Positions 1 through 22,784 of a stretch of DNA of 24,035 bases are shown here, in pieces. This DNA comes from a virus (lineage: Duplodnaviria; Caudoviricetes). Made by a program: the position numbers and the translations under genes. Location of the stretch: the IMG/VR virus record IMGVR_UViG_3300043452_000034, positions 1-24,035 of that record; one strand, written 5' to 3'. Position 1 is the first letter of the stretch. Each line of letters opens with the position of its first letter. The notes below the pieces were generated by a model that worked only from the letters and a program-made list of their open reading frames with translations, was not told the origin of the DNA and made no database searches.

Positions 1-135
1 GCGCTAGCCTCCTCTGCAGCGGGTATACTTAGTTTCACTAAGCCTTTAGCGCAAATATATCCAGCAGCAACAAGCCGTCCCCGGCTTGGTTCGCTAGAAC
101 CCGTGTTGAAACCAGAGGTTTTTCGCTCACAAGAG
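1..135 (-). mobile_element. Partial non-autonomous IS200/IS605-family mini-element (copy B), truncated by window start
   Basis: Minus strand reads TTAC|CTCTTGTGAGCGAAAAACCTCTGGTTTCAACACGGGTTCTAGCGAAC (139..89), matching the left end of copy A at 6059-6104. Positions 1-27 are 25/27 identical to 5857-5883, the start of the omegaRNA-like module. Confidence 0.75.
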
Positions 136-4241: not shown

Positions 4242-4895
4242 TCAAACACCGCCCGAAAGAAAGTAGCAAAGCTTATCGGACATTAGTTGATAATGCTTTG
4301 TCCTAGCACTACTATAATAAGAAACAGCAGCAGCACGAGCAGCAGCATCAACAGCATCAGCAGAACGAACAGCAGCATGAACAGCGTAAGCAGCATAAGC
4401 AGCAGCGTAAGCAGCAGCAGCGTAAGTATCATCAGCAGCAGTTTTCCACTCTGTTGGACTACCCTCTGCACCCTCAGCGGCTTTGCGGAACAGCTCTGCT
4501 ACTGCTGTTACTGCAGGGTTTTGGCTGTGCCCGCAAACCCTATGCTCCGCATCGGCTAGCATCCAATAGGTAAACCGATACCAAACCTGGCTGGTATCTA
4601 TACCCTCTTTTACAGACTCGAACAACTTTACTGTCCAGTCTTTGTAATCTGGCGAAGGTAAGCCTTCAAAAATTTGATCGGAGAGGTAAGCAATCCTTGG
4701 ATCAACGCCGAATAGCTCAGGATAATCATCATGTTTACCCTTCGCCATGCAGCCTACACTGCAGCCTTTCCACCCTGTAGAGGTTTCTTCACCATAGGTA
4801 CCCTTTAGATAGCTATCCTGCAGATAATGCTGCTCTGCGATGGCTACAGCCTCTGCTTTTGTGTAGGTTGAGTTTACGAAGGCTAGTGTTGTCAT
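4242..4895 (-). CDS. Ala-rich repeat protein, paralog 2
   Basis: Same domain architecture as paralogs 1 and 3. Confidence 0.85.
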   Translation of the reverse strand: MTTLAFVNSTYTKAEAVAIAEQHYLQDSYLKGTYGEETSTGWKGCSVGCMAKGKHDDYPELFGVDPRIAYLSDQIFEGLPSPDYKDWTVKLFESVKEGIDTSQVWYRFTYWMLADAEHRVCGHSQNPAVTAVAELFRKAAEGAEGSPTEWKTAADDTYAAAAYAAAYAAYAVHAAVRSADAVDAAARAAAVSYYSSARTKHYQLMSDKLCYFLSGGV

Positions 4896-4950: not shown

Positions 4951-5676
4951 TCAAACACCACCGGCAAGAAAGTAGCACAACTTATCAGCCATAATCGGGT
5001 AATGCTTTATACGAGCATCAATAGCAGCACCAGCAGCGTAAGCTGCATCAGCAGCATCAGCAGCAGCAGAAGCAATATAAGCAGAGTAAGCAGCAGCATA
5101 AGCTGCATCAGCGGCACGAGCACCAGCAGCACCAGCAGCACCAGCAGCGTAAGCAGAGTAAGCAGCAGCGTAAGCAGCATCAGCACCAGCAGCAGCAGCG
5201 TAAGCAGCATCAGCAGCAGCTTCCCATTCTATTGGGCTAACCTCTGCACCTGCAAAAGCTTTGCGAAACAGCTCTGCTACTACAATAATATTAGGGTGTT
5301 TGCTAGACTTACACGCCCCATGATCTGCATCAGCCAGTATCCAGTAGGTAAAACGATACCAAGCCAGCTTGGTATCTATACCCTCCTGCACAGACTCGAA
5401 CAACTTTACTGTCCAGTCCTTGTAATCTGGTGAGGGTAAACCCTCAAAAATTTGATCTGAGAGGTAAGCAATTCTCGCATCGATACCGAACAGTTTAGGG
5501 TAATCACAGTGATTACCCTTCGCCATGCAGCCTACACTGCAGCCTTTCCAGCCCTCAGGGGTATCTTTACCGTAGGTACCCTTTAAATAGCTATCCTGCA
5601 GACGGTGCTGCTTTGCGAGGGCTACAGCTTCGGCTTTGCTGTAGGTTGAGTTTACGAAGGCTAGTGAAACTGGCAT
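4951..5676 (-). CDS. Ala-rich repeat protein, paralog 3 (longest repeat tract)
   Basis: RBS AAAGGAATCAT-ATG. Same architecture. Confidence 0.85.
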   Translation of the reverse strand: MPVSLAFVNSTYSKAEAVALAKQHRLQDSYLKGTYGKDTPEGWKGCSVGCMAKGNHCDYPKLFGIDARIAYLSDQIFEGLPSPDYKDWTVKLFESVQEGIDTKLAWYRFTYWILADADHGACKSSKHPNIIVVAELFRKAFAGAEVSPIEWEAAADAAYAAAAGADAAYAAAYSAYAAGAAGAAGARAADAAYAAAYSAYIASAAADAADAAYAAGAAIDARIKHYPIMADKLCYFLAGGV

Positions 5677-5716
5677 ATGATTCCTTTAAAAGTTGAGATG
5701 ACAGAATTATAGCACA
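5677..5716 (-). promoter_or_regulatory. Extended -10 promoter and leader cassette
   Basis: TGTGCTATAAT-TCTGT-CATCT-CAACTTTTAAAGGAATCATATG (TGn-TATAAT). Confidence 0.65.
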
Positions 5717-5883
5717 AAACAGATTTGACACCGACCCATGGCTTTAGCCCGAGGATTCCCACTATTGGAAGGCCATGCCCGACCTCGGTGCCTTGCGGCA
5801 CCTCATTCACTACACCAGCTTTGCCGGTAAAACACTGCGTGTTTGCAGTCTCGACGGCGCTAGCCTCTTCTACAGCGGGTATA
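5705..5883 (-). ncRNA. Putative TnpB omegaRNA/reRNA scaffold (5883..5725) plus guide (5724..5705)
   Basis: Closing stem CCCGCTGT/ATAGTGGG. Hairpins ACTGC/GCAGT, TACCGGC/GCTGGTG, GGTGCC-GCAA-GGCACC and AGGTCG-GGCA-TGGCCT, whose loop can pair with TGTC just before the terminal AA. Overlapping frame resembles TnpB C-terminal tails (GHGLPIVGI...GVK). Confidence 0.6.
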
Positions 5884-6106
5884 TTTTCTCTCATCTGATT
5901 TCTCCAAGCTACTTTAAACAAAAGCCTTTCGGCTTTGACAATTTAAGAAAGCATGCGCCTAATGGCAAATGTGTTCATACTTTTTTGCACTGATTCTAGC
6001 ATGCTTTCCCGGCAGGAACTGATGGTTGACTGAATTACAGGGTCTTTACGTGAATTCAGTTCGCTAGACCCCTGGTTGAAACCCGAGGCTTTTCGCTCAA
6101 AGAGAA
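5725..6106 (-). mobile_element. Non-autonomous IS200/IS605-family mini-element (copy A, about 380 bp, no tnpA or tnpB)
   Basis: Left end TCAC|...GAGCGA-AAAG-CCTCGGGTTTCAACCAGGGG hairpin. Right end GG-GAAT-CCTCGGGCTAAAGCCATGGG-TCGGTG-TCAA. The AAAG guide and the GAAT/TCAA guide-cleavage pair are the IS608-type signatures. Confidence 0.75.
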
Positions 6107-6307
6107 GTGATTGATCATACACTCCTGTTTGTTGTAGCTGCATCTGTACCCGGTTCCATCAGTCTCGTAAAATCTCAGTACGCGGCCCTGCTTATCGAGA
6201 GTGCAATCCCACCCCGTGCCATCAACTCCCCGATAACTCAGTTGGCGCAACTGCTTGTCGATTGTGCAGCCCCGTGACCTGTTTAGCGGTGTGTATTCCT
6301 CCGGCAT
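6056..6307 (-). CDS. Small hypothetical protein (83 aa, two DGTG motifs); C-terminus reads into the IS left end
   Basis: ATG at 6307 with AAAGGAAA RBS. Ends SEKPRVSTRGLAN. Confidence 0.7.
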   Translation of the reverse strand: MPEEYTPLNRSRGCTIDKQLRQLSYRGVDGTGWDCTLDKQGRVLRFYETDGTGYRCSYNKQECMINHFSLSEKPRVSTRGLAN

Positions 6308-6351
6308 AATAAAATTTCCTTTAAAAATTAAGATGCTGCGATAATAGCACA
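6308..6351 (-). promoter_or_regulatory. Third copy of the early promoter/leader cassette
   Basis: TGTGCTATTAT-CGCAG-CATCT-TAATTTTTAAAGGAAATTTTATTATG. Confidence 0.55.
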
Positions 6352-6407
6352 CTTTCAAACCAGCATGCCAATACTTGACTGATCCGCATGGGTATTCCTT
6401 GCCGGGC

Positions 6408-6447
6408 AAAAAGAAACCCCGCTGCAACGTGATAGCTGGGCGGGGTT
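6408..6447 (-). terminator. Terminator-like hairpin
   Basis: AACCCCGC-17 nt-GCGGGGTT followed by TCTTTTT. Confidence 0.55.
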
Positions 6448-6872
6448 CAAATGCAAACAACCAGCATATTTTAGACGTAGCTATAGCGGGTGGCCGTGTC
6501 GTTCTCCCTGCAGGAAGGAAACTACGCCGTACACCGTATCTCTATTGCGGGGCTATTCATCATTGCAGCAATTAATATCTGAAATAATAAATATAAAACA
6601 ATAACTACAGGCTATTATTAAACTTCTGTCCGTATCCACAACTAAGCAACTCCATAAGAGAGAATGTTCATCGAGATCGCCTGCAACGCTTCCGCCACCA
6701 TATTCAAGCAATGTCTACGCTAGTCCCCGTTCCAAAGGCTAGCACCCACAAGTTGGTCTTTCATGCAGGGTTGTCTTTCTTAACATGCTACCCGATTTCA
6801 AGGTCAATAGCTGCTTGCTGAGTATCAGCGCTGCTGTTAGAGCAATAGCTTATATTTGTTGCTATATACCTT

Positions 6873-6901
6873 ATTGTATCACAATATTTTTGTAAAATCA
6901 A
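6873..6901 (-). promoter_or_regulatory. Leftward sigma70-like promoter
   Basis: TTGATT-17 nt-TACAAT with TGn extension. Confidence 0.7.
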
Positions 6902-8362: not shown

Positions 8363-8419
8363 TCCAATGTAGCTCAGTCGGTAGAGCCTTGGGTCGCTGG
8401 TTCAAGTCCAGCCATTGGT
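8363..8419 (+). pseudogene. tRNA-like element lacking the anticodon arm and CCA
   Basis: Acceptor CCAATG/CATTGG, D arm GCTC-AGTCGGTA-GAGC and T arm GCTGG-TTCAAGT-CCAGC are all intact, but only 8 nt separate the D and T stems. Confidence 0.75.
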
Positions 8420-8575
8420 TATTATTTCTCAGAATCTGCAAAAATGCCTAATCAGCAGCCCATCTTTGAGGGTAGAAAGCAAGGAACTTTTAGTAGCTTG
8501 CGCAAGCAAGGAAGCATTGTGATGATGTTGTCAAACAAAGTTTGCAAAAGAACGAAGAATCCTGAGAAATAATAA
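8419..8575 (+). ncRNA. Candidate structured small RNA inside the tRNA cluster
   Basis: Perfect 14-bp closing stem TTATTATTTCTCAG/CTGAGAAATAATAA. Nested TGCAAA/TTTGCA and AATGC/GCATT helices. CTTGC-GCAA-GCAAG GNRA hairpin. No ORF. Confidence 0.5.
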
Positions 8576-8586
8576 TTAAAAATTAC

Positions 8587-8663
8587 AGCAGGGTGGAGAA
8601 GTGGTCTATCTCGGAAGTCTCATAAGCTTCAGACCGTTGGTTCAAATCCAACCCCTGCTTCCA
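8587..8663 (+). tRNA. tRNA-Met(CAT), initiator-like D arm
   Basis: Acceptor AGCAGGG/CCCTGCT, anticodon arm GAAGT-CT-CAT-AA-GCTTC, T arm GTTGG-TTCAAAT-CCAAC, encoded CCA. Confidence 0.9.
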
Positions 8664-8670
8664 TAATAAC

Positions 8671-8715
8671 CTGAGTGTAGGGCAGCCCGGTTAGCCTACT
8701 TGCCTTGGAAGCAAA
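8671..8715 (+). pseudogene. 5' part of tRNA-Pro(TGG), truncated by HNH gene
   Basis: CTGAGTG-TA-GGGC..GCCT-A-CTTGC-CT-TGG-AA-GCAAA, then the HNH ATG at 8716. No matching T arm or acceptor 3' strand found. Confidence 0.75.
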
Positions 8716-9138
8716 ATGACAAAAGATATTAAAATTAGGACATGCAGTAAGTGCTCGCTCCAGTACAACCATTATAATCAGAAGTGCTCTTTTTGCAAAG
8801 TATGTAAGCGAGAATACGATAGAAATTATCACAAAGCTAGACCTGATGAAATTAAACAAAGAAAATTAAAGTTACAAAAAGACAGGTTAGTAGCTGCACG
8901 CAAATTCTTGTATGAATATTTATTAAACCATCCTTGTGAAGTCTGTTGTGAATCCGATCCTGTTGTTTTAGAGTTTGACCATTTAAATAGAACCTTAAAA
9001 GAAAATAATGTATCGAACATGGTTTGCTTTTCTATAGAAAATCTAATTAAAGAAATGGCAAAGTGCCGAGTATTGTGCGCTAATTGCCACAGAAGACATA
9101 CCGCTAAACAGATGAGTTGGTACAAATTTAAAACATAG
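8716..9138 (+). CDS. Zn-binding HNH endonuclease
   Basis: CxxC pairs, LEFDH...N and LCANCH motifs. Confidence 0.85.
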   Translation: MTKDIKIRTCSKCSLQYNHYNQKCSFCKVCKREYDRNYHKARPDEIKQRKLKLQKDRLVAARKFLYEYLLNHPCEVCCESDPVVLEFDHLNRTLKENNVSNMVCFSIENLIKEMAKCRVLCANCHRRHTAKQMSWYKFKT

Positions 9139-9167
9139 ATGCTAAAATAGTCAAGTAACCAAACAAA

Positions 9168-9243
9168 AAGTCCTTAGCTCAAATGGTAGAGCGTTAGTCT
9201 TTAAAACTAAAGGTTCACAGCTCGAAACTGTGAGGATTTGCCA
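9168..9243 (+). tRNA. tRNA with anticodon TTA (putative stop suppressor) on a tRNA-Trp-like body
   Basis: Acceptor AAGTCCT/AGGATTT, discriminator G, CCA. Anticodon arm TTAGT-CT-TTA-AA-ACTAA. T loop is the atypical CTCGAAA. Confidence 0.75.
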
Positions 9244-9249
9244 AAATAT

Positions 9250-9324
9250 TTCCCAATAGCTCAGTGGTAGAGCGCTTCGCTGTTAACGAAGATGTCGCAC
9301 GTTCGATCCGTGCTTGAGGAGCCA
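9250..9324 (+). tRNA. tRNA-Asn(GTT)
   Basis: CTTCG-CT-GTT-AA-CGAAG, T arm GCACG-TTCGATC-CGTGC, GCCA end. One acceptor mismatch. Confidence 0.9.
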
Positions 9325-9331
9325 ATATATA

Positions 9332-9405
9332 GCTCTTGTAGTATAGTGGCAGTACAGTTGCCTTGTAAGCATCAGGCTGTGGTTTGATTCCATGCTAGAG
9401 CACCA
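9332..9405 (+). tRNA. tRNA-Thr(TGT)
   Basis: GTTGC-CT-TGT-AA-GCATC, ACCA end. T loop TTTGATT is atypical. Confidence 0.8.
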
Positions 9406-9445
9406 GTTTTGCTTTTCCGTTCCCCGATAAATGGGCGGTGAGCTT

Positions 9446-9519
9446 GCAGCCTTAACTTAAAGGTAGAATCTCTTCCTTCCAAGTAGAGTGTAAGTGTTCG
9501 ATTCACTTAGGCTGCTCCA
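9446..9519 (+). tRNA. tRNA-Gly(TCC)
   Basis: Acceptor GCAGCCT/AGGCTGC, loop CT-TCC-AA, T arm AAGTG-TTCGATT-CACTT, TCCA end. Confidence 0.85.
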
Positions 9520-9546
9520 AGTTTGCATTCGTTACGCGAATAAATT

Positions 9547-9622
9547 GCACCCATCGTCTAATGGCTAGGACACCTGGTTTTCATCCGGGCAATCGCGAGT
9601 TCAATTCTCCGTGGGTGTACCA
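9547..9622 (+). tRNA. tRNA-Glu(TTC)
   Basis: Acceptor GCACCCA/TGGGTGT, CCTGG-TT-TTC-AT-CCGGG, ACCA end. Confidence 0.9.
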
Positions 9623-10357: not shown

Positions 10358-11816
10358 CATTTTATTTGCTCCAGCTAGTGAAGCACAACAAGCATTCTTA
10401 CTGAGTAAGAGCTGGTTCACCATATATGGTGGTGCTGCTTTCGCTGGAAAGTCCATGTGCTTACTCGGCAGCATGTTACCGATAATCCATCATCCCGGTA
10501 CGAGGGCACTGATTATCCGTAAAACAACGAAGATGCTGACAGGTTCGGGGTCATTGTTTGACGCAGCAATCACTTTGTATTCTAAGATTGATCCTAAGTT
10601 GAAAGTCAAGTCAAGGGATTTGAAACTGGTGTTTTCTTCTGGTGCAGAGATACAGTTTACATACCTAGATAAACCTGCTGACAGAATGAATTTGCAGGGC
10701 AAAGAGTTTTCCCGTCTTTGTCTTGATGAGTGTCAACAGCTAGACGGTGATAACGTGTTTTACGCCCTGTCTCGCTTACGATCTACAATGGTAGATTACC
10801 CCCTACAAGTTCATGCAACTTGCAACCCTGATCCAGACTCGTTTCTAATGAAGTTTGTTGAGTTTAGTTTAGGGGATGATTTAATTCCTAGAAGTTCAGC
10901 AAGAGAGGAAGAACGTTATTTCGTAAGAGATTCTTTTGGATTGCACTTCTATAATAACTATGACGAAGCGTTCAGAAAGCACCCGCCCGACAGTAGAGGT
11001 GATTCACCAGTTAAATCTTATAGGTTTGTACCTGGGAAGATATTCGACAACCCAGTAGGGCTTGAGCAAAACAAGGGATATATTTCTACGTTAAAAGCAC
11101 TACCTCCAATCGAGTCCAGAAGACTTTTACATGGTGCTTGGGTCAGAGAAAGTAAATCAGGTTACTTCAAACGAGAGAATGTGGCTATCGTAGATAACAA
11201 GTGCCCTTATCCAGTAAAAAGTGTTCGTGCTTGGGATTTGGCATTTACTCCACCTAGTGAGTCAAGGCCTGATGTAGATGCTACATGTGGTGTGCTTGTA
11301 ACAAAGGACAAAGCCAGTGTGTACACAGTTGAAGACTTAACGATGGTTAGAGACAGAGTTCACGTTGTTGAAGAAGCAATTTTTAAGACAGCATCCAAGG
11401 ACGGAACAGAGGTACTAATATCGTTACCACTTGACCCCGGTGCTACAGCAGGGGCCTACTGTAAGGACTTGGCTAGAAGACTAGCGGAGTTAGGTTATAC
11501 GGTTAAGTTGACTAGACCAGAGAAGGGTAAATTGCAAAGATTTCTTCCTTTTGCAAGTGCAGTAGAAACAGGATATGTGCAGTTTGTTCGTGCAAATTGG
11601 ACTGATGACGCTTTTACTGAACTAGAGAAGATGGACTTCACCAACAACACACATGATGATGTTGCTGACACCCTTAGTGATGCGTTCTATCATCTGAACC
11701 AAGGTGGTGTGCAACTCCCAGACAGCTTCGTTCTACCAGACTTATCAAGTCGTGTATCAGCGTTTGGTTTTCAAGATGCAACTATTCCTAGAGAACTCGT
11801 AACAAAATTAAATTAA
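10350..11816 (+). CDS. terL: Terminase large subunit
   Basis: Walker A GGAAFAGKS, Walker B LCLDE, motif III ATCNP, nuclease motifs RAWDLA and HDDVAD. Confidence 0.95.
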   Translation: MSNILFAPASEAQQAFLLSKSWFTIYGGAAFAGKSMCLLGSMLPIIHHPGTRALIIRKTTKMLTGSGSLFDAAITLYSKIDPKLKVKSRDLKLVFSSGAEIQFTYLDKPADRMNLQGKEFSRLCLDECQQLDGDNVFYALSRLRSTMVDYPLQVHATCNPDPDSFLMKFVEFSLGDDLIPRSSAREEERYFVRDSFGLHFYNNYDEAFRKHPPDSRGDSPVKSYRFVPGKIFDNPVGLEQNKGYISTLKALPPIESRRLLHGAWVRESKSGYFKRENVAIVDNKCPYPVKSVRAWDLAFTPPSESRPDVDATCGVLVTKDKASVYTVEDLTMVRDRVHVVEEAIFKTASKDGTEVLISLPLDPGATAGAYCKDLARRLAELGYTVKLTRPEKGKLQRFLPFASAVETGYVQFVRANWTDDAFTELEKMDFTNNTHDDVADTLSDAFYHLNQGGVQLPDSFVLPDLSSRVSAFGFQDATIPRELVTKLN

Positions 11817-14977: not shown

Positions 14978-17694
14978 CATTCGCACTATCAGGCAGCACA
15001 ATTACACAATCAGGCACTGACACTAACTTGTCGGGTCTTGCTGGCATCGCAGGCGTTGTCACGCGAGTCGAAGGTGCAGGCACCTATGTAAAGACTCGTT
15101 ACTACTTACCTGCAGCTACCAACCTAACCTACAACAACCTGAGCTGGGATCCGCGCAGCGAATGTCTGATTTTTGGTGCGGGCGGCTCGTTGTTGCAAGC
15201 TGCCACCACAACGTCAATATTGACTATCGGCAATCAGATTACACAGTTTGGAGGTACGTACAGTCACCAGTCAGAGGCGATTATATTTACAGGCAACCAA
15301 GGTAACGCATACCAAGTTGTTCAAGGCTTTAGAGTCTTGCAAGGCACTTTTAACTGGTACTCGGGCATTATCCGCGCGCAAGAGGGCATGGGATTCGGGG
15401 CCACACAATATGACAACGGTGGTGCAGTCGGGACGCTAAAAGGATACATTGGCCCATATGCGGTGCTTGAGATTATGCGCACGCCGAGCGGGCAGACAAA
15501 CGAGTCTTGCCAGTTGCAATTTGCATGTGACCCGTCCTTTATCGTTGACGGCATGACCGTCCGTGGGTACGGCACCACACCACCTTCATACTTGATTTCG
15601 CTTGCCAGCACGACAGCCTACACAACCCCGTTTGCTTTTAACCTTGAAGGTGGTGGTGGCATTACTGCACAGGCAGCAGGCAGGACAACCAACTTTGCAA
15701 ACTTCTTTGGGCTGCAATCTAAGGCATCTCCAAAGGGCTTTAATATGTTCTTAGGCTCACTGATTCGCGGTGTAAATCAGATACTGGGTTCTGCGGTTGT
15801 CATTGTTGAGCACAACGTTGACCCAAGCCACCCGCAGGGGTATGTCGAACTGCGTAACGAGGTGGATTGCACCTTCAAAAACATTGCGGGCGCAACTCAG
15901 CAAGGTGTAGTGCTGTATTGCAAAGACACCAACAATGGAAAGCGCCAGACCTACAACCTTAACGGTGTAGTCATCAACAACACAGCGGATAAGGTTTACA
16001 TCGGCACCAGCGATGCATCTGGGAACGTAAAGTTTGCAGGGCTTGCAAACTCGATTCTCTTGGCTGCTGTGACGAGGAATACGTCCGGCACGGTCGTCGG
16101 GGTTGATGACACAGGCCTGAATGCAAAAGATTACAGGTCAATCACGGGCACTAAAGGTGCAGACGATTTCAGGTTTTACAGTTGGGGCTACGGCTTTCTA
16201 CCTGACACAAGCGTTGAGATTTTAAAGTCAGATAAAGTAGCAAAATTCTTACCTAAGACCTTACTGCCGGACACTGCTGTTACTTTGACTGAATCGCAAG
16301 CAGTTGCCAAGTTGGCGTCCTCATTCACTGTTGCGAGCAACGTATTGACAGTGACAGCTTCGAGCACGCTGGATAATCTTTACGACGCGATGAAAGCCTA
16401 CAAGACACGACCGGTGCAGACCCAGCTAGAGTTCCCCAGCATAGCTGTGCAGCCGGTCACAGCCACAGGTGATCAACTTACCACCTCGATGACCGTAACC
16501 ATAAACGCAGGTGTAACGCTGTCTGGCGGCACGAAATTTAAGAGCCTGTCTTCTGGCGTTATTACGCTGCTTGGCAGCATCACGGGGTTCGAGGTAGTCG
16601 GCAACGTCACGCAGTCTGCACCGACCAATTTGAGCAACGTCAGCATATCGGGCACTTTGACGTACAACACAAGCAGCGCCACGGCGGTGACTTTCACCAA
16701 CGTAACGGCAAATACGGTAAGCAACAGCGGTGTTGGTTTTGTCACTGTAAAGCGCATTAACTCCACGCTGACCGTTGGCACAAACGTCGTAGCATTTGCA
16801 CCGACAAGCCTTGCATTTACGCTAGGCGGCGGTCGCATCCGCGTTCTAGATAATCTAGGCGTAGAGCAATTTAACCAAGCTTCAGACGGTGCGTTTGAAT
16901 TGCCATCCGCTGCCACAGGTACATGGACATACACCATCCGCAAATACGCGCAGTTGCCGATTGTTGGCGCTGTCACAATCGATGGCACGACAAAAGCCAT
17001 AGTCGCTGCCTACATCCCCGACACGCAAGTGGTGGACACTGAGGCTAACGTCACGGCTTACACTGCACTAGACAGCAGCCAGCAAATATACGACTACCTA
17101 TCGTTGTACGGCGCTACCGCTACAGGCATTGTATTTGGTAGCGTTGCCAGCAAAGGCTTTGGCACGCTTACCGTACCTGCTGGTTTGACACTTAACCCGG
17201 CTGCTGTATCTATCGTGGCAATTTCTGCGGGTGTGGTCACCACCAAGACCAACGGCCTGTCTGAGTCAGTCACGCTGATCAGTACAGGCAACATTGTGCA
17301 GGGCGCGGCCACACTGTCATCTGATGTAGCAATACGTGCAACTAACCTTGATAGCGAAATCGTTTACACAGTTGATTCTGTAACTTTTTATCCTAGCATT
17401 GGTGATAGGAATGCAGGAACCAATCCCGGTGTTACAACGACTGGTGGTTTGTACCGTTTCAAACTAGGTAGCACGGTAAGCAGCGTACCTCTGTCAGGTG
17501 TAGTGGCACTAAGGGTAATTGCTGGCGGTGTGACCTTATTTAGTAATTTAACCTTGAGTGCAGGTAAGAACATACTAGATTTAGGTGTACAAGCACAACT
17601 TGCTGCTTTATCTGCAAAGACTTTGACCTTAGCGCAAATCGAAGCCAGTAAAGTACTGGCGCTTAAATCAGACGTTTGGGCTGCTGCAAATTAG
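14974..17694 (+). CDS. Large beta-rich fibre/adhesin-like virion protein (906 aa)
   Basis: Thr/Gly/Ser/Ala/Val-rich composition. ATGA-coupled and last gene of the inserted module. Confidence 0.6.
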   Translation: MTFALSGSTITQSGTDTNLSGLAGIAGVVTRVEGAGTYVKTRYYLPAATNLTYNNLSWDPRSECLIFGAGGSLLQAATTTSILTIGNQITQFGGTYSHQSEAIIFTGNQGNAYQVVQGFRVLQGTFNWYSGIIRAQEGMGFGATQYDNGGAVGTLKGYIGPYAVLEIMRTPSGQTNESCQLQFACDPSFIVDGMTVRGYGTTPPSYLISLASTTAYTTPFAFNLEGGGGITAQAAGRTTNFANFFGLQSKASPKGFNMFLGSLIRGVNQILGSAVVIVEHNVDPSHPQGYVELRNEVDCTFKNIAGATQQGVVLYCKDTNNGKRQTYNLNGVVINNTADKVYIGTSDASGNVKFAGLANSILLAAVTRNTSGTVVGVDDTGLNAKDYRSITGTKGADDFRFYSWGYGFLPDTSVEILKSDKVAKFLPKTLLPDTAVTLTESQAVAKLASSFTVASNVLTVTASSTLDNLYDAMKAYKTRPVQTQLEFPSIAVQPVTATGDQLTTSMTVTINAGVTLSGGTKFKSLSSGVITLLGSITGFEVVGNVTQSAPTNLSNVSISGTLTYNTSSATAVTFTNVTANTVSNSGVGFVTVKRINSTLTVGTNVVAFAPTSLAFTLGGGRIRVLDNLGVEQFNQASDGAFELPSAATGTWTYTIRKYAQLPIVGAVTIDGTTKAIVAAYIPDTQVVDTEANVTAYTALDSSQQIYDYLSLYGATATGIVFGSVASKGFGTLTVPAGLTLNPAAVSIVAISAGVVTTKTNGLSESVTLISTGNIVQGAATLSSDVAIRATNLDSEIVYTVDSVTFYPSIGDRNAGTNPGVTTTGGLYRFKLGSTVSSVPLSGVVALRVIAGGVTLFSNLTLSAGKNILDLGVQAQLAALSAKTLTLAQIEASKVLALKSDVWAAAN

Positions 17695-18224
17695 TTTCTA
17701 GCGCTAGCATAAAACTCGCAATCTTGCGAAATCTCGTGAGCGATGCGTGCAGCGTTAGCAGATTCAGAGGTAAGGAAATATCCTAGGTGCTTCAGCTTTC
17801 CATTGACGCTGGCGTGTGCGCGAAACTTGCCAGAGGCCTTATGCCAGCTTACACCTTTGAAGCCGGAATTGCTATCTACACGAAGACCAACATTGCGCTG
17901 ATTCTCGCTTTGAGAGCATTCGCGCAGGTTGCTGATTCTGTCATTGCTTCTATCCTGATCAACGTGATCAATGATATCCACAGGCCATGCGCCATGCTCG
18001 TAAAGCCAAGCAAGGCGGTGAGCTCGGTAAAGCTTGCCGTTGATCATGACTTGGGTGTAGCCGTCTAGACGCAGCGATCCTGCCTTACTGCCAGCCTTGC
18101 CACCACCCCGCACACCCACCAACCTCGTAAACTCGCCAATTGCAGGGCAATACGCAAGCATCTGCTTGAGCAGCGCCTGAGCTTCAGCAGCGTTGTCTGG
18201 CAAGCCTTTAAAAATCTTGGTCAT
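17691..18224 (-). CDS. HNH-AP2 homing endonuclease
   Basis: AHRLAW...IDH.D....ND...NLR and SGFKGVSW...HLG.F motifs. Start ATG 18224 with GGAGG. Confidence 0.9.
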   Translation of the reverse strand: MTKIFKGLPDNAAEAQALLKQMLAYCPAIGEFTRLVGVRGGGKAGSKAGSLRLDGYTQVMINGKLYRAHRLAWLYEHGAWPVDIIDHVDQDRSNDRISNLRECSQSENQRNVGLRVDSNSGFKGVSWHKASGKFRAHASVNGKLKHLGYFLTSESANAARIAHEISQDCEFYASARN

Positions 18225-18286
18225 TTTAATTTTCACCTCCTTCAAAAAATTAGATTTTACCATAAAGCCGGATATCCAGTTTTCCC

Positions 18287-18315
18287 TTGATATTTTATTA
18301 AATTCGTAGTATAAT
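18287..18315 (+). promoter_or_regulatory. sigma70-like promoter for head genes
   Basis: TTTTCCC-TTGATA-17 nt-TATAAT. Confidence 0.75.
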
Positions 18316-18347
18316 AACAACAAAGCAAATATGCTAAGAAATGCTGA

Positions 18348-18842
18348 TTAAATCGTACAACCTTCGTGGTACTTGCGTTTAGCTTTTAGATAAGCAGTAT
18401 GTGCCTCTTCTGCTGTTAGAAAAAGTCCAAGCCATATCAGTTTATTACCAATTTTAATTCTGGATTGAAATTTTCCCGCTTGCTTGTGCCACCCTACACC
18501 TAGCAGTCCTGTGTGATTGTTATTTTGTGACCCCTTCCTGTTCTGACCGTTGACAACAACGGATACGTCACGGAGGTTATCAATCTTATTATTCGACGGA
18601 TCACCATCAATGTGGTCAACAACTCCATCAGGCCACTTACCATGTGTGAACAACCATGCTAGTCGGTGTGCATAATAAGTCTTACCGTTATACGCTATTC
18701 TTATGCGATTTTGTGACGAAAGAGTACCTGCAATGCTCCCAGCGGGGACGCTTCTTGCAACGTCTACTTTCCAATGAAAGTACCCCGTATCAGGTGCGTA
18801 TTTTAGAACAAGAATTAAAATATCTAATATAGTTTTACACAT
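18348..18842 (-). CDS. HNH-AP2 homing endonuclease
   Basis: AHRLAW...VDHIDG..NN...NLR and LLGV.W...LG.F.TAEEA motifs. Start ATG 18842 with GGAGG and its own TGGTATAAT. Confidence 0.9.
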   Translation of the reverse strand: MCKTILDILILVLKYAPDTGYFHWKVDVARSVPAGSIAGTLSSQNRIRIAYNGKTYYAHRLAWLFTHGKWPDGVVDHIDGDPSNNKIDNLRDVSVVVNGQNRKGSQNNNHTGLLGVGWHKQAGKFQSRIKIGNKLIWLGLFLTAEEAHTAYLKAKRKYHEGCTI

Positions 18843-18872
18843 ATAACCTCCAAATAAGTGATTATACCATAA

Positions 18873-19250
18873 ATGAAAACAGTAATTAAGTCGCTGGATC
18901 AGGAGTTGCGGCAAGCAACATATGTTGTGATGAACCTTAAAGAAGATGCTCATGGTGAAATAACTAACGCAGATGAGATAAGGAAAGCATGTCACAATTT
19001 CAACCGCAGTCCAAAAAGAGCGAATCTCTTTCACCGAGTCATGACAGATTCGTTTGAGTTTGTTGAGTCTTATATTTTACCGAGTGATATACAAATTGAA
19101 GATATAAGCGGTGAAGTCAGAAATATTTCAAAAGGGAGTTGGTTAGTAGTAACCCAAACTCACTCTGATGAACTCTGGCAGGCTCAGAAAGACGGGAAAA
19201 TTACTGGTGTGAGTATCGGCGCGCTTGGGCAGGTAGTAGAGGAAAATTAA
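18873..19250 (+). CDS. Putative prohead protease (XkdF-like)
   Basis: DAHGE, NLFH, VESYI, KGSW and W...K.G.ITGVSIG motifs. Lies upstream of scaffold and capsid. Confidence 0.75.
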   Translation: MKTVIKSLDQELRQATYVVMNLKEDAHGEITNADEIRKACHNFNRSPKRANLFHRVMTDSFEFVESYILPSDIQIEDISGEVRNISKGSWLVVTQTHSDELWQAQKDGKITGVSIGALGQVVEEN

Positions 19251-21772: not shown

Positions 21773-22270
21773 TTACAAAGTATTTGCCGGATGTATTTGT
21801 CTTTTTATCAAAAGATATGCTGCGTAAGCTTCCTCCGCAGATTTAAAAACACCAATGTGCTTTGTTTTATAGTTTAGCATTATTTTTGCAACATATCGAC
21901 CTCTTCTAGTGTCGTAGTGAACACCTAAATAATTTGTTTCACTTGTTTTGCAAGATGTTTTTTGATTTTGCGCGTTTTCTGATTTTGTAACTTCTCTCAA
22001 ATTCAAGATTCTGTTATCTGTTTTTACACCATTTACATGGTCTACAAGATTGGTAGGCCACTGCCCATAGTGCAATAACCACGCCACCCTGTGAGCGTAA
22101 AAATCCTTACCATCGAATCCAAGAACTAAGTAACCATTTTTGGACAAGTTACCTGCGTTTGTACCAGTTTTTGCGCGAGAACCTTTTGTTCTTTTCCAAG
22201 TAATGCTGCCAGTATTTGGATCATAGTATAGATAATCTTCAAACTTTACAGTGCTTATATTGTCTTTCAT
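21773..22270 (-). CDS. HNH-AP2 homing endonuclease
   Basis: YDPNTG, AHRVAW...VDHVNG..DN...NLR and YLGV...HIG.F.SAEEA motifs. ATG 22270 with GGAAGG and TGATATAAT upstream. Confidence 0.9.
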   Translation of the reverse strand: MKDNISTVKFEDYLYYDPNTGSITWKRTKGSRAKTGTNAGNLSKNGYLVLGFDGKDFYAHRVAWLLHYGQWPTNLVDHVNGVKTDNRILNLREVTKSENAQNQKTSCKTSETNYLGVHYDTRRGRYVAKIMLNYKTKHIGVFKSAEEAYAAYLLIKRQIHPANTL

Positions 22271-22322
22271 GTTTAAAACCTTCCAAACGTAAACAACCAT
22301 TATATCACTAAGGAGGCAAATT

Positions 22323-22784
22323 TTGCCTGTAACCCCTGAATTAATAAACGCTGTAAGAATTGAAATAGGTGATACAGAAATTTCTCTACCTATTCTTTCT
22401 GATGATGAAATAACATACGCCTTAGAAAAGTACAATTTGTCCGTCAACAAGGCTTGGCCTCATTGCGCTTCTTGGGTTTCACTGAAACTTGCGCAATCTG
22501 GGGATCACCAAGTAGGTATTTTAAGTATCAGGGGGTCAAGGGCTTCTACTGAATATAGACTGTCTCTACTGATGAAACTGAAAGACCCGTCATTGAACCC
22601 AATTCTAAGTGGTTTGGGTAGCTTTGTAGATACTGACGGTGTTACTCAAAATCCAGTGTACGCAGGTGGTATATCCAACAGCGACATGCTTGCAAACACA
22701 AGCAACACAGACAATAATTATATTCCGTCTCCTGTTTATCAGAAATCAGACCTAAAACCATTCCGTGGTGCTTTTGAAGTATAA
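22323..22784 (+). CDS. Head-tail adaptor/connector protein
   Basis: VRIEIGDT....ILSDDEI.Y.L motif. TTG start with AAGGAGG. Confidence 0.7.
   Translation: MPVTPELINAVRIEIGDTEISLPILSDDEITYALEKYNLSVNKAWPHCASWVSLKLAQSGDHQVGILSIRGSRASTEYRLSLLMKLKDPSLNPILSGLGSFVDTDGVTQNPVYAGGISNSDMLANTSNTDNNYIPSPVYQKSDLKPFRGAFEV

Follow-up and report, generated by a model that had tools for sequence, protein, structure and literature searches.

What is the short protein-less element at positions 5725–6106 of this phage DNA, and does it carry a guide RNA that a TnpB nuclease encoded elsewhere could use? Its identity is settled: it is a PATE with a TnpB omegaRNA, and the nuclease is most likely encoded on the same phage.

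The element lies in a stretch of 24,035 nucleotides (G000), referred to here as the window; it covers 24 kb of a tailed phage and has genes for a terminase, a portal, a major head protein, tRNAs and several HNH proteins. The best terminase match is that of Limnohabitans phage DC31 (43%), followed by Pseudomonas myoviruses of 84–97 kb; given these terminase relatives, we take the phage to be virulent. From the DC31 match together with the closest tnpB genes we infer a host in the Burkholderiales. The locus is present in four sequencing runs, all freshwater or freshwater-sediment metagenomes; coverage in run X4 was too small for use. No RNA run appears among the sequencing runs listed, which says nothing for or against expression.

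A sequence-only reading of the window had described a ~380-bp minus-strand element with IS608-type ends and neither tnpA nor tnpB inside, plus a second copy at positions 1–135, both in the sense of the surrounding genes. Size, strand and gene content all hold up: the element (copy 2) spans ~382 bp, it and the second copy (copy 1) share the strand of the flanking genes, and no tnpA or tnpB gene is present in copy 2, tblastn finding only 18 C-terminal TnpB codons within the window. The features of the two copies are as follows.

5725–6106, minus strand: copy 2, a protein-less IS605-family derivative (PATE) of ~382 bp, from sequence comparison
6059–6106, minus strand: left end of copy 2, with the AAAG guide tetranucleotide at 6092–6089 and a subterminal hairpin at 6088–6069
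5992–6050, minus strand: promoter-like block (GTCAA ... TGCTAGAAT at 6001–5993), homologous to the DNA directly upstream of the phage tnpB start
5884–5991, minus strand: remaining 108 nt of the spacer, source unexplained, with TTTGCCATTAGGC at 5969–5957 and a GCC-GAAA-GGC hairpin plus T-tract at 5936–5916
5788–5883, minus strand: putative omegaRNA 5′ extension (stem-loops, GAAUGAG, GNRA hairpin), equivalent to the extended tnpB C-terminal codons
5725–5787, minus strand: putative omegaRNA core and right end (5-bp hairpin, 3-bp hairpin, GAAT, right-end hairpin with two mismatches, TCAA)
5705–5724, minus strand: predicted guide, i.e., the 3′ flank, overlapping the TGnTATAAT −10 box of the Ala-rich gene at 4951–5676
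1–135, minus strand: copy 1, cut by the contig end (TTAC junction, left end, second hairpin, tnpA tail, tnpB 3′ remnant)
53–97, plus strand: last 14 codons and stop of tnpA (KYIQQQQAVPGLVR); bacterial relatives finish QYIEQQQAVPA at the same place
1–59, minus strand: tnpB C-terminal coding remnant (YICAKGLVKLSIPAAEEAS...), overlapping the tnpA tail at a short shared sequence

Copy 2 runs from its left end (~6106–6059) through a 175-nt spacer to a 159-nt module that begins with TATACCC (5883) and closes with TCAA (5725). The left junction falls between 6104 and 6106 (a 2-nt uncertainty), with CACT rather than TTAC in register, and the left end is without the second hairpin that copy 1 and the bacterial relatives carry; at the right end, GAAT (5758–5755), a hairpin and TCAA (5728–5725) follow one another. 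The IS608-type motifs claimed for both ends (AAAG with a hairpin; GAAT, hairpin and TCAA) are thus present, but they are imperfect, copy 1 having AAAA and copy 2 having CACT and the two hairpin mismatches. As DNA, the ends of copy 2 fold no better than shuffled sequences (z = −0.3 and −1.3), so their assignment rests on comparison: the right end resembles that of a plasmid tnpB element and the left end those of tnpA/tnpB elements in G066, G083 and G260, giving near-terminal palindromes of the kind seen in PATEs. No inverted repeat links the two ends among the 25 longest of 75 pairs listed. Similarity to IS200/IS605 ends and similarity to tnpB 3′ regions, on which the sequence-only reading depended, are both found. 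Because the left junction and the right hairpin have decayed, copy 2 is probably immobile now.

Part of the spacer can be traced. The promoter-like block matches the DNA upstream of the phage tnpB at 71% over 59 nt, in a local alignment that beats 300 of 300 shuffles, and includes an extended −10-like motif by motif scan. TTTGCCATTAGGC is a 13-nt exact match to small protein-less elements (minis) of bacterial genomes (L098, L103), again beating 300/300 shuffles; apart from this 13-mer and the promoter block, the spacer aligns to tnpB or to window DNA no better than shuffles do. The spacer as a whole differs from that of another phage copy, copy B, at 11 of 165 nt. TTTGCCATTAGGC is able to form a 3–4 bp hairpin, and the interiors of the minis are otherwise unlike the phage spacer. 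A TTGCCA-17-TAAATT site at 5968–5940 was not counted as a promoter, the sigma-70 scan having returned 4 sites against 3.0 expected, and a reading frame in the tnpB frame (MRENIPAV...) was dropped, as it has no family match and varies in length between copies.

Copy 1 is where it had been reported. Its left-end guide is mutated to AAAA, it is 90.6% identical to a further phage copy, copy A, and it shares with copy 2 the left end and the beginning of the module. Its 60-nt “spacer” consists of the last 14 tnpA codons joined to tnpB coding DNA that begins ~30 nt upstream of TATACCC; in bacterial relatives, the tnpA terminus QYIEQQQAVPA* adjoins the same type of left end. With a tnpA tail on the plus strand and a TnpB tail on the minus strand, copy 1 is therefore, judged by its sequence, a single internal deletion that fused the tails of divergent tnpA and tnpB genes. 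Fusions of this sort are among the PATE forms described in PMC3119063. The sequence-only reading had homology between the copies resume at TATACCC, but only the copy-2 type breaks there, which is why the two appear to share that point; the copy 1 coding sequence starts ~30 nt farther upstream. Its proposal that two deletion derivatives kept the RNA module stands insofar as both are IS605 deletion derivatives with an omegaRNA scaffold, but the argument from coincident breakpoints fails.

A motif scan of viral contigs identified contig G001, which encodes a 383-aa TnpB (positions 10595–11746; PF07282 and PF01385); the copy 2 module corresponds to the last 35 codons plus right end of this gene, and the spacer and left-end patterns occur among viral contigs on G001 only. 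Divergent from tnpB there is a 25-codon stub, cut off by copy B, which by its motif is presumably a TnpA N-terminus; it has no Pfam match and is too short for one. Aligned to ISDra2 TnpB, the G001 protein has D179, E294 and D332, with G250 at the position of the canonical RuvC-II glutamate, a pattern that fits an active TnpB of the rearranged type (D179 / G250 / alternative E294 / D332), active TnpBs with rearranged catalytic residues having been reported (PMC10530073). The protein has matches in 360 phage records; phage-borne tnpB is common, and cases of it have been published.

Over its final 111 bp the window is identical to the end of contig G002, which in turn overlaps G001 over 3315 bp with 5 mismatches, a linkage by assembly overlap rather than by a single molecule. 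A 1336-nt tnpB contig that lies on G001 with 0 other letters has a depth of 36.1 in run X1 and 52.2 in X2, and a 612-nt piece has 4.7 in X3; the long window contigs have 32–41, 40–43 and 4–9 in the same runs, one of which may be the window's own source. Since contigs that chain to the window carry tnpB, a partner in trans is likely the phage's own, and this tnpB most likely belongs to the same phage as the window. The search for further copies and for a TnpB that the sequence-only reading had proposed thus yielded five more derivatives, an intact-looking tnpB and a truncated tnpA.

Chained 54 kb: eight elements, namely the tnpB element and copies 1, 2, A, B, D, C and E
Copy A: copy-1 type, complete
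Copy B: copy-2-type spacer, inverted beside tnpB, left hairpin deleted
Copy D: right end only, with a degraded scaffold
Copies C and E: 47-bp fusions of left and right ends, no scaffold

No intact tnpA occurs in the reading frames listed for the 54 kb, and loose contig ends suggest that the rest of the phage genome carries more copies. Copy B and the tnpB end agree at 125/125 nt, and 125-nt inverted repeats flank tnpB and the tnpA stub (L045:10133–11763). Spacers and module lengths are shuffled among the phage copies. The 47-bp copies C and E sit directly after truncated reading frames (L045:11809–11944; L062:14028–14237), which we take to resemble a phage adenine methyltransferase and a GIY-YIG endonuclease; Pfam gives no match for these frames at these lengths. 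Their placement suggests insertion with deletion.

Are such scaffold-bearing minis peculiar to the phage? Our bacterial survey covered 401 genomes, the family of a Burkholderiales assembly, and two of these, G066 and G247, contain protein-less elements of 282 bp in multiple copies (six and three near-full ones, respectively). These elements share the same type of left end, bear the extended scaffold and have differing flanks; both genomes also carry tnpB. Multiple bacterial copies mean that scaffold-bearing minis are, on this comparison, a mobile class of the IS group and not a phage invention. At these loci (L098–L108) the minis inserted after TGAC have the extended scaffold and the inspected tnpB copies mostly the short one, with one tnpB of extended type in G247 (L147).

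The same relatives illuminate the insertion rule. The four bases before the left end covary with the four-base guide 13 nt inside it: TGAC accompanies CAAG in 20 of 23 bacterial left ends, and TTAC accompanies AAAG in phage copies A, C and E. The exceptions are copy 1 (TTAC/AAAA), copy B (TGAC/AAAG) and copy 2, with CACT in register. In IS608 the left-end guide reads the target, and this covariation fits that rule.

Whether the module is an omegaRNA was judged by origin and by fold. It derives from the tnpB 3′ end and right end, with the predicted guide outside the element, as expected. The RNA of copy 2 is structured (z = −2.4), in line with the claim of a structured RNA at the right end; over its last 61 nt it matches the 3′ end of the plasmid tnpB element at 79%, and the 63-nt core proves to be the right-end RNA of a TnpB. 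Comparison with Rfam models, which had been suggested, found nothing for the element at E up to 1 over the whole window or up to 10 over 5650–6400, and in GenBank there was no DNA match among phages and only the 61-nt right end among plasmids. The guide RNA of TnpB has a conserved fold with a pseudoknot next to the guide, as seen in TnpB structures.

We aligned the last 63 nt of 28 right ends from the fetched loci, using a script filter that demanded the first hairpin and leaving out partial or false rows, one identical-type duplicate and two sequences with longer right ends. Three hairpins make up the resulting core: one of 5 bp, with a loop that pairs to the five nucleotides preceding the terminal AA, one of 3 bp, and the right-end hairpin; in copy 2, the GGGCAU loop (5780–5775) pairs with GUGUC (5731–5727). 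Across the 28 sequences, bases pair in 95.4% of 587 cells and both partners vary in 16 of 21 pairs, with 42–49% pairing in slid controls, although the filter and the reading of the structure from the same sequences favor the first hairpin (the pseudoknot and 3-bp hairpin are unfiltered). The covariance check proposed by the sequence-only reading thus came out in favor of both hairpins and pseudoknot. A scoring model built from 23 elements outside the phage gives 74.5 bits to the tnpB end and to copy B, 64.9 to A, 50.6 to copy 2, 47.7 to D, 26 to C and 21 to E. Among the full-length phage cores, copy 2 scores lowest. Its pseudoknot contains a second G-U and its right-end hairpin is partly mismatched; all pseudoknot and hairpin pairs upstream of that hairpin are retained. 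Relative to copy A, copy 2 has 4 differences in the 128 nt of the RNA body and 8 in the 31 nt that form the right-end hairpin and tail (Fisher p = 0.0003), and the four body changes lie in loops or preserve a pair as G-U. Gene conversion may account for this conservation; it could yield the same pattern, since copy B equals the tnpB end over 125 nt.

Upstream of the core, a tnpB subgroup has extra hairpins, which lengthen the protein by ~33 residues. In six relatives of this subgroup the 5′ extension forms a fold of its own next to the core; in copy 2 it is 33 nt longer than in the phage tnpB. The multibranch “closing stem” emphasized earlier is the minimum-energy fold of the phage sequences, but it uses up the same bases as the pseudoknot hairpin and the 3-bp hairpin, both of which covary in relatives, and therefore does not represent the conserved structure. 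With the conserved fold imposed as a constraint and pseudoknot energy excluded, stability drops by 8.7 kcal/mol for copy 2, by 7.6 for copy A, by 4.5 for the tnpB RNA and by 1.9–4.5 for seven relatives. In this model the 8.7 kcal/mol gap counts against copy 2 as a good guide, though the cis RNA shares the competing fold. The module of copy 2 may also be without some needed 5′ part of the omegaRNA. That the covarying core measures 63 nt, with the 5′ hairpins optional, hints at how short the scaffold of this TnpB group might be.

In ISDra2, the sequence flanking the element on its 3′ side serves as the guide and the insertion motif as the TAM (PMC8612924); by this rule we infer a guide role for 5705–5724. 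Seven guides were compared with 678 kb of fetched loci for a second near-match following TTAC or TGAC, and none had one; the chained 54 kb hold no convincing second site. The copy 2 guide has 0 matches with ≤2 mismatches in the 401 bacterial genomes, a set outside which the host may lie. The outside targets for regulation or competition that had been envisaged were not found; each element matches its own flank. An element-free allele was not found either: no joint skipping copy 2 is among the joints listed for the four runs, and searching for the empty site through the flanking proteins returned distant homologues or G001 itself only. No conserved orthologous cassette was found in other phages. 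The 11 matches of a metagenome scan with a 22-nt hairpin motif were set aside as chance, none extending past the 22–29 nt motif, as was a match in L048. The sole evident target would be the empty site, a choice in keeping with retention or homing; for multicopy plasmids, a drive powered by TnpB has been described (bioRxiv 10.1101/2025.02.20.638934). As a separate observation, a TATAAT-like hexamer occurs 5–13 nt after several right ends (5705–5724; L045:3306–3325; L045:11764–11783; a loose end in X2), and two different flanking sites share their first 10 flank bases.

The reading we favor, at somewhat better than even chances, is that copy 2 is a PATE supplying an extra guide in trans to the phage TnpB, which would cut element-free copies of the site, i.e., homing. 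The RNA would be transcribed from the captured tnpB-type promoter at ~6001 or by read-through; TnpB would bind it and trim it to ~175–180 nt, with a 3′ end 16–20 nt beyond TCAA; an allele lacking the element, such as that of a co-infecting relative, would be cut by the complex at TTAC plus the 3′ flank; and repair from the carrier would preserve or spread the element, as for a homing endonuclease. Transposition itself would have required TnpA in trans, from the host or from the unseen part of the phage. A broader version, in which an intact-looking TnpB and at least four dispersed cassettes (copies 1, 2, A and B) make up a multi-site RNA-guided homing system that cuts element-free relatives in co-infection, with insertions displacing homing-endonuclease and methyltransferase genes and the inverted repeat perhaps swapping the cis guide, strikes us as unlikely.

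The main competitor, to which we give a real chance though distinctly short of even, is that copy 2 is an inert relic: an ordinary decaying PATE with no working guide, its RNA-like sequence kept by the coincidence of right end and tnpB 3′ end and by recombination. Its decayed ends and the competing fold, lower by 8.7 kcal/mol, are what one would expect of such a relic, and the scaffold-less C and E and degraded D of the same phage indicate that deletion need not spare the RNA. Recombination would account for the identity of copy B to the tnpB end and for the shuffled spacers and module lengths, and PMC3119063 treats C-terminal remnants and 52-bp terminal-only forms as deletion products. What speaks for a functional guide instead is that the RNA body is better conserved than the DNA hairpin (4/128 versus 8/31), that the pairs upstream of the right-end hairpin and the promoter-like block are retained, and that a cognate TnpB is present.

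Two further readings carry far less weight. It is very doubtful that the phage has domesticated these elements, keeping them on purpose to direct TnpB against rival phages or genes of the host, or for promoter repression in the manner of TldR. Such a role would agree with the presence of eight derivatives within 54 kb of a phage that is likely virulent, with several right ends that adjoin −10 boxes or ribosome-binding sites (copy 2 included), and with a tnpB that looks intact while tnpA is truncated. But each guide is a mere flank, with no second match in the 54 kb or 678 kb and, for copy 2, none in the 401 genomes, and other phages yielded no conserved orthologous cassette. TldRs are nuclease-dead and some are phage-borne, whereas this TnpB retains its full rearranged catalytic triad, at odds with the TldR-type regulation suggested by the sequence-only reading. 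Least probable of all, and hardly to be expected, is that the copies matter mainly as portable homology for recombination, for instance inverting the tnpB segment between copy B and its own right end and so swapping guides. The 125-nt identical inverted repeats of copy B and the tnpB end, and the location of C and E at truncated methyltransferase-like and GIY-YIG-like frames, are compatible with it, but no inversion joint is among those listed (the assembly is interrupted at the repeat, where such a joint would escape notice), and it explains the conserved pairs of copy 2 no better than conversion alone.

Both PATEs and the idea of omegaRNAs acting in trans are already in print (Meers 2023; PMC10691335), so any surprise here is modest. 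The PATEs of Dyall-Smith et al. (2011; PMC3119063) share with ours the lack of terminal inverted repeats, the near-terminal palindromes and the lack of a transposase; the C-terminal remnants of divergent tnpA/tnpB described there parallel copies 1 and A, and the 52-bp terminal-only forms parallel the 47-bp C and E. Those elements reside in haloarchaeal chromosomes and were described with no RNA role, whereas ours are in a tailed phage with a cognate tnpB. Closer are the PATE-like elements of Geobacillus stearothermophilus (Meers 2023, bioRxiv 10.1101/2023.03.14.532601), which are protein-less and often encode omegaRNAs that need TnpB in trans; in that work TnpB cuts the empty donor joint, so that the element is retained. 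They differ from ours in belonging to a bacterial chromosome and other TnpB families, as opposed to a phage, a TnpB with rearranged RuvC and an extended scaffold. Stand-alone omegaRNAs (Altae-Tran 2023, PMC10691335) are effector-less mobilised loci that share a genome with an effector, as here, and are stated in that paper to act in trans, with a biological role which the text gives as unknown; the trans function of ours is putative, and their phage setting suggests homing between co-infecting genomes.

The phage TnpB shares with the rearranged-RuvC TnpBs (TnpB2, TvTnpB, TAM NTGAC; Jiang et al. 2023, PMC10530073) a glycine for the RuvC-II glutamate and an alternative glutamate ~45 residues on, and insertion of the bacterial relatives after TGAC recalls the NTGAC of TvTnpB. 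It differs from TnpB2 in using TTAC with an AAAG guide and in its ~33-residue C-terminal extension, and the likeness to TnpB2 rests on residues, not on a tree. With TldR (PMC10705468) the phage has in common a TnpB-derived protein with a guide RNA, and differs in its retained triad (D179, alternative E294, D332) and in guides that show no outside target. Among the top-ranked matches of our literature searches, whose scope was text other than subscription papers and bioRxiv supplements, there was no test of trans omegaRNA cassettes in a lytic phage.

For the role of stand-alone omegaRNAs, the phage offers a compact test case: one nuclease, a graded series of natural scaffolds and two 47-bp scaffold-less controls. 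Should guides prove to act in trans in co-infected cells, TnpB would stand beside the homing endonucleases of phages as their RNA-programmed equivalent.

The window has other features of interest. A Pfam match of the open reading frame at 137–322 was dismissed (E 0.03, below cut-off). On the minus strand, ~500 nt at 6400–6900 hold no convincing gene; there is a promoter-like site upstream (6901–6873), stem-forming segments and a terminator-like end, and the segment is possibly a non-coding RNA, without an Rfam match. Paralogous minus-strand genes at 2201–2884, 4242–4895 and 4951–5676 encode proteins of 217–241 aa with an Ala/Tyr-rich repeat (AAYAA...) and have similar leaders; none of the three has a PHROG match, nor has the one scanned a Pfam match. 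Further Ala/Tyr-rich paralogues occur elsewhere in the phage (on run contigs), with distant homologues on other viral contigs. On the plus strand, seven tRNA-like matches cluster at 8363–9619 with an HNH gene (8716–9138) within the cluster, and three HNH endonuclease genes of phrog_99 (17691–18323, 18348–19034 and 21773–22450, minus strand) lie antisense inside the structural operon.
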